Source: a virus
Length of the DNA: 64,000 nt
Virus record (IMG/VR): IMGVR_UViG_3300009182_000002
Coordinates: 1-64,000 of that record
Reading direction: 5' to 3' (one strand)
The notes beneath the pieces were generated by a model. It was not told where the DNA came from. It searched no databases and saw only the letters and a list, made by a program, of their open reading frames with translations. The position numbers were made by a program, and so were the translations under genes. Positions 4,607 through 38,683 of the stretch are shown piece after piece. Numbering within the stretch: the first letter of the stretch is position 1; each line of letters opens with the position of its first letter.

Positions 4607-7600
4607 CTAGACCGGGATTCCCCAGCCGACGAAAGGTCGTCGGTAGACCCCCGCCACAACATCAGCGAGTTGCGTGACATCGGCACCTGTCCTCAAGTAC
4701 CTAGCAGATACAACAAGTGCCTCCGATACGGTCAGGCTATCCGCAGGGTTTCGTGGACGACTACCCAAACGTCCACCAATGTCGGACAGTGTGAGCGCAT
4801 CAGTGAGCCCGCGAGTTTTGGCAGACTTCGCTGAGGCTGAATCTGAAGACGTGGCGCTGTCGTTGACGAGCCTTATCATCGAGCGCGTACATGTGGCCGA
4901 ATCTGACGCTGTAACGGCGTCAATTGCTGCTCTCAAGAAACCACGGCTTCTAGCAACGGTGTCGCTAGAAGTAAGCGAGTCGCTGGCGGTACGTGCCCTC
5001 GTCATCGTGACTGTGATGACATCGCTCGTTGTGAAGATGTCAGCGGCGAAACTAGTGACGCCTCTGCTGCGCGAGATCGAGTCGGACGCGGTCTGAAGGT
5101 CCGTGGCGGTTCTTGAGAAGGAAGACTTTCGTGCAACTGACTCACTAGACGTTAGTGACTCGGCAACTGCGCGGCTTTGCGAGCGCGGTGACGTAAGTAC
5201 ATCTGAAGATGCAAGCACATCAGTAGCACTACGAACTCTAGTGTTCTGCTGAGTTAGAGCGTCAGATGCAGTTAGAGAGTCAGTCGCTGAGCGAGGCCGA
5301 CCGATGTTCGGGGTTCCGAGTGCATCGGATGCAGTGATCGAGTCTGAAACTGCGCGGCTGAGTGCTGATACAGCCGTGATCGGCAACGCCACAGTTGACT
5401 GACGTGTACCCGCTGCTGACTTGTTGATCGTAACTGTTTGGCCGGTAGCAGCCGTAAAAGTAGTCGCAGCCGTGGACGTGACCACCGAACAGTCTATGTC
5501 AAGAACAGTAGATCCGTCACCGATCACAACCGCACGGTAGACACGACCGCCGAGCGCATTGGCGCTACCGTCGGTCGCTCCAAAGTACGCGGTCCTCGTA
5601 TTCGTGATAAGTGGGAATGCGGCGAGGGTGTGCGTGGAGATGGTGGTCCACGTCGCACCATCTGGGCTCTTGTAGAAGGTGATGACACCAGACGCAGCAA
5701 TGCGCGTCACACGGAACCAGTACGGGGTTCCGCTGGGTACGTTGTGGGACGAACTCTGCTGTTCCACATAGGTCGTAGCGCCTGAGCCGAATACTGCATA
5801 GAGGGCGTTGTTAGTATTTCCCGTTGACAGAATCCAACCGCGTGCGCTTGCGTTCTGCTTGGCCGCGAGGCCAATGTATGTTCGTGTGCTCGTCTCAATA
5901 GACGCATAGACGCGAATATCAATATCGCCTGTGATATCGAGTGCTGACGAGTTCGGAACAGACAGTGAGTTGCCGTTTACCGGCGGGATATATACCGAAG
6001 CACGATTCTCGGAATCCAGACTTGCGGTAGCGTCCGTCGCAGGTCTACTCAGTGTTTGTGATCTAGAGAGACTGTCAGATGTAGTGAGCGAATCAGAAAC
6101 ATCACGGTTCTGGACGCGAGGACTGGTCAGGACATCAGATGATGCAAGTGTGTCCGATGCAGCCCTAGCCTTGGTGGTAACAGCGCTGCCAGAATCACTA
6201 GCACTAAAAACGTCGGTGATGTTGCGGCTAAGAGCGAGGTTGCTCTTTCCAACGCTCCCAGTGACAGCATCTGAAATAGTAAGAGAATCTGATGGGCTAC
6301 GAACTCGCCCAGCAACAACAGCACCTACTGTAGGAGCAATGAGTAAGGCAACGCTAAGCGCGTTTTGTCCACCGCTGGTTGTGAATGCGGTAGTTCCTGT
6401 CGAGCCAGTATTTACTATCTTGTAGCCAGTGCGTAGCCGAGTTCCATCGGAATATTGGTAGTTGATTGATGCGTCAGCGGGGCCAGCGGTAAGAGATCCG
6501 TACGAGGTAAAGGAACCGCTGGTCATCGCCGCAATTCCGATGAGCAGACATCCATCTTTTGGTACAGAGACGGAATTGATTGGCACAGAGGTGGCCGTGC
6601 CTCGTATCCAACTGACCGAGTTCAGGTCGTTGTCGTAGCCAGCATGTGAGATGGGGTTGATGCTACTAGCAGATCCTACAGGGACGATAGAACCGTAGTC
6701 GCCTCCTGAAATGACTACAGCCTGTAAGGCAAATTGGACATCGTCACTGGCTACGAAGTTATATGATGCACCAGAAGTCCATTGGACCGGATAGATACTT
6801 AGGGCAATGTCTCCGATGTAGGAAACGCCAGTGACGTAACTTGTTCCGGCGGAGGAAAAAAGATTGCTTGTTGACTGAATGTAATGATCAATAATTGCAT
6901 AGTAAGGATTCGGACCAACATTTGAGGTGCTGCTATCCCCTGTGATGTCGTGTGACTGAGCGCCGATAAACAGCACCGTGTCACCCGCAGCAGGAGCCGA
7001 ACCGACCCACGATGACGACGATGAAATCGTAACACCAGCAGAACCGTAACCAGTCCAAGAGAAAGTACCCTTGACTACTGGAAGTGTTGTAGTGCCAGTT
7101 CCGGGTGATGCTGCGGTTGTCGTCTCACTAAATGTGATGCTGTCCGAGATAGATTTTGGTCGTCCAACACTTCTAGAAATACTGTCTGCTGTTGTCAGTG
7201 CATCAGCGATGCTTCGTGCAGATGTCCTATTACGAGATATTGCGTCAGAAGTAGTAGTTGAATCTGCAAGTGCTCGTGACTTAGAAGATGATTGAATTAA
7301 CGCATCAGAGAGTGAGACTGAGTCGGTTACTGATCTGGAAAAACCGGGAACAGTTGCCGAATTGATCGTCGGCCAGTACTGCTGCTGGTTGGGCCTGTTC
7401 TGCGGACTCTCGAATCGCGTAGTAACGGTGCTATCAGTAAGTCCGCGTGTTTCAAACTCCGCAAACGACATATAGCAATAGATCGTTGCTCTTGCGTTGA
7501 GCGCTGCCACCATCGCCGCAGTTGCGTTGGCCGTGGTCTGGCTGTATGCCGTGATACCTGTGAAGGTGGCGGCGAGTGGGAGAGCGGCCATCTGCTCTGG

Positions 7601-28287: not shown

Positions 28288-28306
28288 AAGAATTCCTTTC
28301 GTAAGG

Positions 28307-28378
28307 CTGACCCGGGTGGACTCGAACCACCAACCGGGCGATTAACAGTCGCCTGCGCTGCCATTGCGCCACGGGTCA
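28307..28378 (-). tRNA. tRNA-Asn(GTT)
   Basis: TGACCCG..GGCGA-CTGTTAA-TCGCC..GGTGG-TTCGAGT-CCACC-CGGGTCA-G; CCA not encoded. Confidence 0.92.
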
Positions 28379-28422
28379 TAGTGCCACGTTTCCGCTCGCG
28401 CCGTGGCTTTTGGTAAGCGGCG

Positions 28423-28504
28423 TGCCCCGAGTGGGACTTGAACCCACACTCCCTAAGGAACCGAATTTTGAGTCCGGCGCGTCTGCCAATTCCGCCAAGG
28501 GGGC
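28423..28504 (-). tRNA. tRNA-Leu(CAA), long variable arm, imperfect acceptor stem
   Basis: GCCCCCT-TGGCGGAATTGGCAGACGC..CCGGA-CTCAAAA-TTCGG..GTGGG-TTCAAGT-CCCAC-TCGGGGC-A. Confidence 0.85.
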
Positions 28505-31351: not shown

Positions 31352-32168
31352 CGGTGATCTCCTTTTGCCCCTCTACCGCGTCGAACTGGGTGCTGAGATT
31401 GCGTCTGCGTGCGTAGGACCGGGAGAACCGACCAAGATTCCCCTCCGACTTCTGGTTCTCCTCGCTCGTGGTATCCCAGAACGACTTCCCGGCAGGCTCG
31501 GATCGACGGTCGTCGCGGTGGTGGATGTCTGCGTAGTCCTCAGCAGAGGCCTCTTTGGACGCCAGAGTGTCGGCATCCCACTGGGAACTGGTGCCAACCT
31601 GCTCCGCAGCCTCCGAAGGACCGGTTCCGGAGTCCCAGAGGCTCTGCCTCTTGTCGAGGACGGGGAGGTTCTCTGCGTGGTGCCCTAGGGCATGGATCAG
31701 TGCCCGGGAGCGCTCATTGCGGCTGGTGCCACTGCGGACAGTCACATGCAGCCGTGAGACCGGCAATTGCTCCTCAGAACCGTCCTTGAGCCGGTAACTG
31801 GCTGACTCCGTGTACTTTGCTGAAGGGTGAGGCTGTTCAGCCTCCATTCCCGGCTTGAACCAGCCGCTGACACCGGATTCGTTCACAGCGTCACTGGTGT
31901 TCCCTGCACGCACGATGTCGAGGTTTCGCAGGTCAGAGGCAGGGACAGTGGACCTAGCCACGTCCTCTTTCATCTGAGCGACCTCTTCAGGGTCACCGGA
32001 GAGCCTCTTGGTGCCCTCGATGGCCTCGCTAACCTCCCGCATCCGCTCAGGGTTGTATCCCCTCGGATACCTCTCGGAGTCCTGCATCCAGAAAGCAGGA
32101 CGTGCGAGCATCCCCTGATCCTCACCCGGGGCGAAGTAAGGCTCAGCAGCGTTCTTCTTCCGAGGCAA
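31338..32168 (-). CDS. zincin-like protein with degenerate HExxH
   Basis: ALIHALGHH..KEASAEDYA; TAGGAG RBS. Confidence 0.55.
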   Translation of the reverse strand: MPRKKNAAEPYFAPGEDQGMLARPAFWMQDSERYPRGYNPERMREVSEAIEGTKRLSGDPEEVAQMKEDVARSTVPASDLRNLDIVRAGNTSDAVNESGVSGWFKPGMEAEQPHPSAKYTESASYRLKDGSEEQLPVSRLHVTVRSGTSRNERSRALIHALGHHAENLPVLDKRQSLWDSGTGPSEAAEQVGTSSQWDADTLASKEASAEDYADIHHRDDRRSEPAGKSFWDTTSEENQKSEGNLGRFSRSYARRRNLSTQFDAVEGQKEITDGNS

Positions 32169-32949
32169 GACAGGGCTCCTAGATAACGGAAGCCCTCCGC
32201 CACTCCAGTATCCAAGGGGACTGACACCCTAGAAAGCGTCAAATGTACAAGTTTTCCTTTTCCCCCTTAGCAACGTTGTAAAAGGGGATGTGACAAGATT
32301 TAGGAACTTTAGTTTTGGGTTCCATAGCAACGGGAGGGCCCAGATGCTCCAAGCAACGCTTGCTAGGGCCTTAGCAATTATTTTAAAGATCGCTCGTCTC
32401 AACGAAGATTCTTGATCGAGAGCGAGTACAGCCCTCCCGCTCCCAAGTTCGGCACGCCATTTGGGCAACTGCCTGAGATTTCAAGGGCCACCTATGCCTG
32501 AGCACTGGCCCCGCGCTGGTGGCGCAAGCGCTTAAGGGTGGGCGGGTCGCTCTGGCTGGCAAGCCGTTAGCCACGCTAAGCAACGGAGCCCTGCCCGGAG
32601 GGCTTCGAGTCGCTCGAGCCCGCTCCGGGCCACTGCCTCGCGACGGGGTGGCGGCGTGGCGGTGCGGGCAGGCTTCGGGATGGTGGTCCGGTGCTGTGAG
32701 TAACCAGCAGCGCGCTGGTGGTGCTGGAGCGCTCACTGGCACCGGGCGAGGGGTCCGGCTTGCCAAGGTCTCAGAATGGCGCTGTGGGCTTGCTAGGGCC
32801 ATCCCAGCGTTGAGCCGGTCCGGTCTCAGCCCTTTCACAGCAGCGTGTTCCAGCGTTGGAAACTTCTTTGGTAACGGTTTGGTAACGAGGGCTGTTTACG
32901 GGAATGAACGCCTTGGCAACCGCGTTGTTGATCAAGCAACACGATCGAC

Positions 32950-33395
32950 ACGGCACCGCGCAGCGCAGGCCCCCGGCTCTCGGGGCGAGCCCCTCGCGAT
33001 GGCCACCACAGCGGGTGAGCGAGCGACCCTCGTACCTCCCAGCGCCACGACCACGGGCTGGGGAAGGGCGACGGTTAAGCAGCCGGACCCGTCCAAGGAG
33101 ACAACTCTGTCGTGCTTCGGTGCGGCAGACGGTCAACAGGGGCACGCCCCGGTCTCCAGATGAATCCGTTGACGTGTCCGGACCATCTGCCGGTCTACCC
33201 GTGAGTGACCGCGCCAAGAACAACCACGGGCCTACTGCATTGCCCATGAAGTGACCTGTGAAGCCCTTGTGGCTTCGCCGGGATTCCCGCCGTGTGCGGG
33301 GAGTGCCTGACACCCCAACGGAATGGCGGGGTGACCATGGGAGGCCAACAACTGTGGTGGGAGCGGGGTGGCCACGCCGCCCCGTTCCCCCACCA
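32950..33395 (+). ncRNA. candidate large structured ncRNA
   Basis: nested helices, a cUUCGg tetraloop, G-U pairs favouring the plus strand, no credible ORF. Confidence 0.55.
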
Positions 33396-33396
33396 A

Positions 33397-33469
33397 GAGC
33401 CGCTGATGAACTGGTCATCGACGGTCGGCAGGCCACCGACCTGACGGGGTTCGACTCCCCGGTGGCTCA
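33397..33469 (+). ncRNA. tRNA-like cloverleaf (non-canonical anticodon loop)
   Basis: acceptor GAGCCGC/GTGGCTC+A; D arm GATGA/TCATC; stem GGTCGG/CCGACC with loop CAGGCCA; T arm CGGGG-TTCGACT-CCCCG. Confidence 0.75.
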
Positions 33470-33504
33470 CGCTCCATACCCACAACCAACCACTAGGAGA
33501 GCCC

Positions 33505-33747
33505 ATGTCCATTCCCACAACCAACCACGACGACCTGACCACGATGCTGGACGGGTCAGTGCAGGTCACCCTCACCCGCGCGGCAGTCGTTGACCTGCTG
33601 AGCGCGCTGGGACGTTCACTCACTGAGAACACCGGCGAGGTTCACATCGTCCTTGACGTGTGCGAACACCGCGCGTGGTTCGACGTGCGCGGTACGTCTG
33701 GCCGCATCGGCGGGGCAGTCACGCACTGCTACTGCGTCATCAACTAG
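33505..33747 (+). CDS. early hypothetical protein
   Basis: 80 aa, CTAGGAG RBS. Confidence 0.7.
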   Translation: MSIPTTNHDDLTTMLDGSVQVTLTRAAVVDLLSALGRSLTENTGEVHIVLDVCEHRAWFDVRGTSGRIGGAVTHCYCVIN

Positions 33748-33806
33748 GCGAAACAGGGCCATCGCGGCCCTGTCCACGGGGTTGGCATCCCCGTGCTGAC
33801 GAGCCT
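33746..33806 (+). ncRNA. hammerhead ribozyme, type II
   Basis: AGGC-GAAA-CAGGGCC(atcgc)GGCCCTG-TC-CACGGGG(ttggcat)CCCCGTG-CTGACGA-GCCT: complete core and three stems. Confidence 0.92.
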
Positions 33807-33831
33807 GCCACCAACCTAGGAGAGTGAAGCC

Positions 33832-37534: not shown

Positions 37535-37578
37535 CAGCGCGACTAGCAGCCACCCCGGTGCAAGGCCGGGGCGCGCAC
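37535..37578 (+). repeat. 44 bp tRNA-minihelix-like element, copy 1
   Basis: identical to 38595-38638. Confidence 0.85.
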
Positions 37579-37610
37579 TGGTGCGACGAGCGCACCTAGC
37601 AACGAGAGGA

Positions 37611-38594: not shown

Positions 38595-38638
38595 CAGCGC
38601 GACTAGCAGCCACCCCGGTGCAAGGCCGGGGCGCGCAC
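38595..38638 (+). repeat. 44 bp tRNA-minihelix-like element, copy 2
   Basis: identical to 37535-37578. Confidence 0.85.
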
Positions 38639-38683
38639 GCTCACGACGAACCGTTCGTCGTATGTAGCCAAAGGAGGGCCAAC

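Follow-up and report, generated by a model that had tools for sequence, protein, structure and literature searches.

The tRNA-like structure (TLS) at positions 33397-33469, on the + strand, is a real RNA of tRNA shape that selection has maintained. Its predicted anatomy gives good support to the view that it does not decode, and we tentatively propose that it would serve as a processing signal inside a longer transcript. The window analysed here comprises the opening 64 kb of a 97,729-bp IMG/VR virus record, which is complete, has direct terminal repeats and shows a G+C content of 58%.

Position of the element in the phage genome

In this genome, a leftward block of structural and replication genes reaches approximately position 32168 and a rightward block opens at 33505. 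The gap of about 1.3 kb between the two blocks (32168-33505) holds no ORF of coding-like composition, and the TLS forms the right end of this divergence gap, on the + strand. Its 3´ end lies 25 nt from a Shine-Dalgarno sequence, and the start codon of the first rightward gene follows 35 nt downstream of it. The rightward block begins, in this order, with an 80-aa ORF (ORF80), a type II hammerhead, a MoxR/CobS-type AAA+ ATPase and its vWA partner. Features of the locus are given below together with their evidence, where L042 denotes a near relative and R1 a covariance model built from the TLS sequences of the window and of L042.

32950-33396, + strand: structured non-coding leader 5´ of the TLS (fold z, no coding-like ORF)
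33360-33388, + strand: 13-bp hairpin, 8 nt 5´ of the TLS (fold, alignment)
33397-33469, + strand: TLS, 73 nt (ARAGORN, MFE fold, covariation against L042, 95 bits with model R1)
33470, + strand: C74, the sole encoded base of the CCA end (sequence)
33471-33504, + strand: C/A-rich unstructured leader with Shine-Dalgarno AGGAG at 33495-33499 (sequence, alignment)
33505-33747, + strand: ORF80, 80 aa, first rightward ORF (GC3 0.81; conserved in L042 at 145-453)
33746-33813, + strand: type II hammerhead ribozyme over the ORF80 stop codon (RF02276, 42.1 bits; gathering score 37)

On ATPase similarity, the phage comes closest among cultured phages to Brevibacterium phage Cantare and the Gordonia Bendigovirus phages, which show about 40% identity along half of the protein. 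Only two lines point to the host, these protein relatives and the binning of one metagenomic sequence (L090, see below), and both suggest Actinomycetota. Genes for Ro/TROVE, SmpB, the CCA-adding enzyme and RtcB were searched for in the phage genome and none is encoded there; any partner of the TLS would therefore be a host factor.

Structure of the tRNA-like element

The 73-nt cloverleaf combines a 7-bp acceptor stem with a canonical T arm and is built from the following parts.

33397-33403 and 33462-33468, + strand: acceptor stem, 7 bp with one G.U pair
33404, + strand: U8
33405-33409 and 33415-33419, + strand: D stem, 5 bp, closing the 5-nt loop ACUGG
33420-33422, + strand: linker GAC
33423-33441, + strand: anticodon-like arm, 6-bp stem and 7-nt loop CAGGCCA at 33429-33435 (A33, C37)
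33442-33444, + strand: linker UGA
33445-33461, + strand: T arm, 5 bp, loop TTCGACT
33469, + strand: discriminator A, followed by CGC and not by CCA

The initial annotation had placed here a cloverleaf of 73 nt whose acceptor stem has 7 bp and whose T loop is canonical, and the letters, ARAGORN and the MFE fold all agree with it. Both the MFE and the centroid fold are this cloverleaf (-36.2 kcal/mol, z -2.9), and adding 146 nt of context to the folded sequence does not disrupt it. ARAGORN, suggested earlier as a check, does call the element (33397-33470, as tRNA-Ala(ggc), beside two ordinary tRNAs at 28.3-28.5 kb) but leaves the L042 copy uncalled. In 60 dinucleotide shuffles of the 97.7-kb genome, it produced no call anywhere.

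Membership features of tRNAs displayed by the TLS are the 7-bp acceptor, the 5-bp T stem, a T loop conforming to UUCRANY and GG in the D loop. Within the Rfam tRNA clan, its best match is to tRNA-Sec (20.1 bits, E 1.6), and the RF00005 gathering score of 29 is not reached; the L042 TLS obtains 18.5 bits. The anticodon-like hairpin reads GGUCGG-CAGGCCA-CCGACC, and this 19-nt arm occurs once in the window. Its loop had been said to lack U33 and purine 37, which is correct (A33 and C37, the same in L042). The D arm is indeed atypical, as was also claimed, with a 1-nt linker, a 5-bp stem and a 5-nt loop, though four of its five pairs covary. The missing CCA, in turn, had been counted among the oddities of the element. 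It is truly not encoded, but this is no anomaly: the 3´ side of the TLS (A73, C74, no CCA) equals that of the two genuine tRNAs of the phage (Asn and Leu, at 28305-28378 and 28422-28504, minus strand). Because these real tRNAs also encode only N73-C74, lack of an encoded CCA is uninformative on decoding.

Compensatory changes in a near relative

The exact TLS is known from just two independent sequences, those of the window and of L042/L090. L042, the single near relative found, is a 2.6-kb metagenome contig whose ATPase is 62-65% identical to that of the window; L090 is the NCBI copy of L042, identical in the relevant part and binned with an Actinomycetota MAG. The layout of L042 is the same, running from a hairpin through the TLS (33-108), a C/A-rich leader with Shine-Dalgarno sequence, a small ORF and a hammerhead to the ATPase.

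All 23 cloverleaf pairs are kept between the window and L042, and eight of them have changed on both sides, namely four of the seven in the acceptor and four of the five in the D stem. When 3´ partners were slid by one to three columns as a control, pairing fell to 34-51% and double changes to zero. The G.U pair of the window (6:67) and the U.G pair of L042 (3:70) would be mismatches if read on the other strand; the structure therefore belongs to the + strand RNA.

Conservation is distributed very unevenly over the element. Acceptor and D stems differ at 17 of 24 positions, while the anticodon-like arm with its linkers (GAC, the 6-bp stem with CAGGCCA, and UG) is identical at 24 of 24 and the T arm at 16 of 17. 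Outside the cloverleaf, the 48 nt directly 5´ of the TLS are identical at 47 positions in L090, and the ACGCTC that follows the acceptor is unchanged in L042. Since the protein divergence implies that neutral sites should be saturated, we read the acceptor and D stems as having drifted to saturation under constraint on structure only, and the other blocks as probably constrained in sequence.

Further copies were sought in several ways. An exact-pattern scan of IMG/VR with T arm plus acceptor gave no match, and one with loop plus T arm gave 16 matches, all of them unrelated elements and none a homologue. Among IMG/VR contigs we also noted a conserved element some 100 nt in length, in which CAGGCCAAAGGGGAAC precedes a T-arm-like GGGTTCGAGTCCC; it is present in 12 of 16 contigs (L043-L058), receives no ARAGORN call and is unrelated to the window TLS. 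A scan of 185,579 species genomes for the 19-nt arm returned 48 matches, with L090 as the sole homologue and the other 47 being coincidences in coding sequence. We abandoned mimicry of a host tRNA or tmRNA as an explanation of the arm, as no tRNA or tmRNA in these 185,579 genomes carries it. An ATPase-based search of viral contigs revealed no further near locus. An alignment-based ATPase scan yielded 37 loci of at most 44% identity, and none of the 37 has an ARAGORN tRNA at the equivalent place.

The element does not decode

The TLS had been judged unlikely to decode, and the present analysis strengthens this view. U33 and purine 37 are near-universal in tRNA anticodon loops, and the TLS has A33 and C37. 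Junctions between acceptor and D stem, D stem and lower stem, and lower stem and T stem measure 2, 1 and 4-5 nt in tRNAs; in the TLS they measure 1, 3 and 3 nt, and in L042 1, 3 and 2 nt. The lower stem has 6 bp. G3:U70, the identity pair of AlaRS, is what allows a tRNA to accept alanine; position 3:70 is G-C in the window and U.G in L042, G3:U70 thus being absent from both. The failure at the Rfam tRNA model and the armless elements found at the same place in other phages (see below) point in the same direction.

The label given by ARAGORN would imply a working, if odd, tRNA-Ala(GGC). In its favour, besides the call itself, one may list the canonical T loop, the GG of the D loop, A73 and the frequency of GCC, which accounts for 49 of 142 Ala codons in neighbouring genes, more than any other. 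Such a molecule would, however, have to function with A33 and C37 in its loop, with 1/3/3-nt junctions and without the AlaRS pair (G3-C70, or U3.G70 in L042), its Rfam tRNA model score lies below 20.1 against a gathering score of 29, and its L042 counterpart is not called at all. A functional tRNA-Ala is, in our opinion, very improbable.

tRNA-like elements at the same place in more distant phages

Model R1 matched an element in L020/L022 (2730-2811), an IMG/VR phage whose ATPase is 37% identical to that of the window. As in the window, the element belongs to the non-coding stretch ahead of the first rightward gene and comes after a hairpin. R1 scores 25.3 bits on L022, as against at most 24.2 for true tRNAs.

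A strict minihelix scan (7/7 acceptor, 5/5 T stem, TTCRANN loop) of 390 kb of related loci gave 19 matches, where shuffles predict 0.9. These include 11 ordinary tRNAs and seven minihelices without ARAGORN call on the gene strand. Six of the uncalled minihelices (L009, L020, L022, L026, L027 and L033) lie in the non-coding gap that follows the strand switch, ahead of the MoxR-type ATPase operon, and the remaining one, in L038, lies downstream of that operon. A relaxed version of the scan (6/7 acceptor, TKCRA loops) gave mostly noise and was discarded. Uncalled minihelices of 57-107 nt from the strict scan, apart from the L020/L022 element, are these.

L009, 3941-4047, gene strand
L026, 3945-4003, gene strand
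L027, 3586-3644, gene strand
L033, 3041-3098, gene strand
L038, 9964-10027, gene strand

None of these five has an ARAGORN or Rfam call. Elements of L026/L027, L033 and L038 measure 57-63 nt and consist of an acceptor, one GG-looped hairpin and a T arm, with no anticodon arm; the lower part of the L009 element is branched. Hairpins of 12-16 bp follow 3-5 nt downstream of the elements in L022, L026 and L027, and C/A-rich leaders resembling that of the window also stand after the TLS in L026/L027 and L033. Gathering-level Rfam scans of 29 related loci detected no further tmRNA-like elements or hammerheads.

All syntenic elements thus have in common the top half of a tRNA (acceptor, T arm and elbow), while their lower halves differ completely. 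A tRNA-shaped element is kept at one position across related phages, and its lower half is a tmRNA-like helix, a cloverleaf arm or nothing at all. RNase P, RNase Z, the CCA-adding enzyme and T-loop modifying enzymes recognise a tRNA by this top half. This pattern of conservation suggests selection on recognition by the host tRNA machinery rather than on decoding.

Relation to tag-less tmRNAs

The L020/L022 element aligns end to end with the Rfam tmRNA model RF00023, with the whole middle deleted (64.7 bits, E 1e-22; gathering score 47 bits). From its sequence it is a predicted tag-less tmRNA, consisting of the tRNA-like domain (TLD) only, with G3:U70 and A73. Exactly one TLD-only ('CDS-less') tmRNA has been described from a phage in the literature, that of Mycobacterium phage DS6A (tmRNA Website tmID 11587; Hudson, Lau & Williams 2014, PMC4131195; PMC11915505), which we located at JN698994.1 28478-28557 (L107). 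This published element scores below the Rfam tmRNA gathering score. Two more TLD-only tmRNAs, both unannotated, were detected in tRNA arrays of Streptomyces phages, one in Shaeky (L110 2475-2556, MT701595.1; 59.3 bits with RF00023) and one in Alone3 (L108 2492-2568, OR725492.1; 48.8 bits with R2, a covariance model of the TLD-only tmRNA class). Shaeky, Alone3, L020/L022 and DS6A elements share A73-C74, G3:U70 and a conserved cap, AAAGCCG-N4-CGGAC, on a lower helix of 5-7 bp.

Resemblance of the window TLS to this class is weak, R1 and R2 giving reciprocal best scores by small margins. On R2, the window TLS reaches 28.8 bits, about 35 true tRNAs searched reach at most 23.9, and the L042 copy 22.7. 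The T stem CGGGG/CCCCG and A73-C74 are common to the window, L042, Shaeky and L022, the T stem being different in DS6A. AUCGAC precedes the lower helix in both the window and L022, where L042 has UGGAC; the GGAC that stands before the T stem in TLD-only tmRNAs is reduced to UGA in the window and to UG in L042.

RF00023 has no match at E<=10 in the phage genome. Of the combination of G3:U70 with A73, only A73 is present. The D region of tmRNA is single-stranded, SmpB filling the space of the D and anticodon stems (PMC3968760), and the TLS has a D stem there. Because it fails on the RF00023 score, on G3:U70 and on the single-stranded D region, and has a shortened 3´ linker, we do not class the window TLS as a tmRNA; common descent with TLD-only tmRNAs is possible.

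Surroundings of the element

The 447 nt 5´ of the TLS (32950-33396) have a fold z of -3.0 on the + strand and of -1.2 on the - strand, so that they outdo shuffled sequences significantly on the + strand only, a prediction compatible with the large structured RNA noticed in the initial annotation. TAGCAAC and TAGCAGC words recur in 32200-32945 and just 5´ of ribosome-binding sites on the + strand (e.g. 37463, 37589); they could be a phage promoter or regulator motif. ORF80 and the small ORFs flanking it have no Pfam or PHROG match.

The hammerhead has a counterpart in L042 (452-519, 41.9 bits) with compensatory changes in two stems, and it sits 18 nt before the ATPase ORF. When the region was compared with 50,697 phage records by megablast and blastn, the sole match was a 44-nt piece of the hammerhead in Streptomyces phage Andris (OP751147.1 43626-43669), where it is unannotated. 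We also observed a repeated 44-nt element (GACTAGCAGCCACC, CCCCGG-TGCAAGG-CCGGGG, CGCGC), identical at 37536-37579 and 38596-38639 on the + strand. Its two copies are 1060 bp apart, each ahead of a gene. A related copy with the loop TGCGAGG is found in L020/L022 at about 4838-4870, just 5´ of the ATPase gene, in the place taken by the hammerhead in the window.

Discussion

Proposed role as a processing signal

In line with the RNase P/Z signal suggested in the initial annotation, we propose that the TLS may be handled as a pre-tRNA by host maturation enzymes and would thereby punctuate the primary transcript, a reading to which we give somewhat less than an even chance. RNase P would cut between A33396 and G33397, and RNase Z or exonucleases, and then the CCA-adding enzyme, would act after A33469/C33470. 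The upstream structured RNA would gain a hairpin-protected 3´ end, and the ORF80 message would gain a defined 5´ end at the TLS, its 3´ end being set by the hammerhead at 33746-33813. A stable tRNA-shaped RNA of 73-76 nt would be released. With the predicted hammerhead cut 277 nt further on, RNase P and the ribozyme together could free an RNA of about 380 nt comprising the TLS, the leader and ORF80. This reading fits the anatomy and the comparative data; from the structure, its compensatory conservation, the non-decoding anatomy and the position, which are observed or computed, we infer + strand transcription, the cleavage step by RNase P/Z and the effects on RNA stability.

Several findings speak for processing. 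The acceptor, T and elbow half is what stays across lineages. The flanks resemble engineered RNA ends: a hairpin stands 3-8 nt away from the predicted cuts, on the upstream side for the window and L042 and on the downstream side for L022, L026 and L027, and C/A-rich leaders with a Shine-Dalgarno sequence come next. The + strand folding of the 447 nt before the TLS fits as well, as does a 3´ side (A73, C74, no CCA) equal to that of the genuine tRNAs of the phage. The elements (L038 apart) occupy the non-coding stretch ahead of the first rightward genes, and a second, self-cleaving element, the hammerhead, belongs to the same predicted transcript and is conserved with the TLS in L042. Against it, the Gordonia Bendigovirus phages and Cantare, the closest cultured relatives, show no such element: in Gordonia phages Gray and GMA6, with divergent gaps of about 1 kb, and in Cantare, with one of about 0.7 kb, there is no tRNA, Rfam or R1/R2 match. 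The L033 element is only about 170 nt from the last leftward gene, so for the family in general the role cannot be to separate a large RNA from an mRNA.

A plain RNase P/Z signal, moreover, has no need of the invariant lower arm. Because this arm with its linkers is identical over 24 nt while acceptor and D stems are saturated, a sequence-specific partner is probably involved as well. The arm thus keeps alive two rival explanations, a decoy and a cis operator.

Alternative explanations

After excision, the tRNA-shaped RNA might act in trans, as an early-expressed sponge for a host factor that binds tRNA or tmRNA (e.g. SmpB) or for a tRNA-directed defence enzyme; by analogy with what has been proposed for TLD-only tmRNAs, it might in particular titrate SmpB and so inhibit trans-translation. 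Genes at the head of an early operon typically serve host takeover, and the TLS would be the first item of such an operon. The syntenic element of L020/L022 is a predicted tag-less tmRNA, of a class also present in Shaeky and DS6A, and Hudson et al. 2014 report strong inhibition of tmRNA in E. coli by a molecule made of the TLD alone, whether or not it can be charged, perhaps because SmpB is titrated (PMC4131195; repeated in PMC11915505). The R2 score of the window exceeds those of all true tRNAs searched, the T stem and A73-C74 are shared with Shaeky and L022, AUCGAC (in the window copy) is shared with L022, and the invariant anticodon-like arm points to a partner that recognises sequence. 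On the other hand, the R2 score of the L042 copy falls within the range of true tRNAs, RF00023 finds nothing, G3:U70 is lacking, GGAC has shrunk to UGA/UG, and a covarying 5-bp D stem occupies the region that is single-stranded in tmRNA (PMC3968760). The 19-nt arm has no tRNA or tmRNA match among the 185,579 species genomes, which also argues against mimicry of an anticodon-nuclease substrate, a decoy role raised in the initial annotation. We regard a decoy as unlikely, though its share of the probability is appreciable. A composite reading, in which a fast-evolving non-decoding tRNA mimic heads the rightward operon, cuts the transcript together with the hammerhead and, once excised, titrates a host factor (SmpB or a tRNA-directed defence protein) through the invariant arm, seems to us unlikely as a whole.

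The same arm would also suit a cis operator, an invariant hairpin on a tRNA-like scaffold to which a host or phage factor would bind and control translation or stability of ORF80, much as in the tRNA-mimicking thrS operator. Its complete identity (24 of 24 nt with linkers), set against ATPases that are 62-65% identical and stems changed at 17 of 24 positions, agrees with this, as does a TLS end just 25 nt before the Shine-Dalgarno sequence. That distance is, however, rather far for steric repression; the arm is found once in the window and is absent from syntenic elements of other lineages, and no protein offers itself as a binding partner, ORF80 and its neighbours being without family. We consider this reading distinctly improbable. 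Lowest of all we place a chance cloverleaf or a feature acting at the DNA level (an origin element, for example, or what is left at attP of a host tRNA or tmRNA gene), which is scarcely credible. A divergence region could hold an origin, and the attP sites of phages frequently contain the 3´ portion of a tRNA or tmRNA gene. But ARAGORN made no call in the 60 shuffles, the compensatory changes of the cloverleaf include strand-specific G.U pairs, its 5´ half is present although attP does not need it, and no host gene contains the arm. The attP reading was rejected, as this complete, terminally redundant genome has no integrase or serine recombinase above threshold. An example of such a piece is found in Mycobacterium phage KiSi (L109 2501-2546), where a sequence like the 3´ end of tmRNA lies directly 5´ of a tyrosine integrase; presumably it is the attP for integration into host ssrA.

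Significance and comparison with known systems

Non-decoding tRNA look-alikes in phages have barely been described, the TLD-only tmRNA of DS6A being the published example. Standard annotation misses such elements: ARAGORN labels the window TLS as tRNA-Ala and overlooks its L042 homologue, and Rfam misses both. Should the punctuation reading be right, a 'tRNA punctuation' system would exist in a dsDNA phage; should the decoy be right, the element would stand for manipulation of ribosome rescue or of tRNA-targeting defences.

With canonical phage tRNAs (RF00005) the TLS shares the cloverleaf, the UUCGA of the T loop, the GG of the D loop and A73-C74 without CCA. It differs from them in A33/C37, in its junctions, in the 6-bp lower stem, in the absence of an identity pair and in its sub-threshold score.

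DS6A-type elements and the TLS are alike as phage RNAs in size (about 75-80 nt), in the 7-bp acceptor, in the canonical T arm, in A73-C74 without CCA and in a short capped lower helix that replaces the decoding arm; the window copy also has UCGAC after its GG-containing D region. In L020/L022, a TLD-only copy even occupies the same genomic position as the window TLS. In contrast to them, the window TLS lacks G3:U70, has a true 5-bp D stem, carries the loop CAGGCCA in place of the AAAGCCG-N4-CGGAC cap and UGA/UG in place of GGAC, and has no RF00023 match. DS6A-type elements sit among tRNA genes or between ORFs and not behind a large structured leader.

The bacterial Y RNA YrlA has a tRNA-like module (Chen et al. 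2014, PMC4201824). Like the TLS, it does not code for protein, imitates the elbow of a tRNA, has representatives in phages and is associated with a protein that contains vWA (Ro60/Rsr). YrlA, however, has its RNA ends in the Ro-binding stem and its acceptor-like stem is closed, whereas the TLS has an open acceptor and a capped lower arm. The genome has no TROVE/Rsr gene, Rfam gives no match, and the neighbouring vWA protein is a partner of the MoxR/CobS-type ATPase. A Y-RNA/Ro60 reading was rejected, the genome containing no TROVE gene.

tRNA-like processing signals include mascRNA, located at the 3´ end of MALAT1, and vtRNAs, which occur in murid herpesvirus 68. Plant mitochondrial t-elements are of the same kind (Forner et al. 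2007, PMC1920247); no phage example was found in the literature searched. The Rfam mascRNA model gives a weak, sub-threshold match to the L042 copy (18.4 bits, E 2.2). These systems are organellar or eukaryotic and their cleavage is demonstrated, whereas cleavage of the TLS is predicted and it has no sequence homology to them. What they share is the anatomy, a non-decoding cloverleaf or minihelix within a longer transcript at the boundary between functional RNAs; in the TLS, an acceptor-T minihelix with elbow stands at such a boundary inside a longer predicted transcript. RNase P and RNase Z need only the acceptor/T half, and it is this half that is conserved here. If cleavage proves true, the TLS would be the counterpart, in a bacterial virus, of the mitochondrial t-element and mascRNA strategy, combined with a ribozyme.
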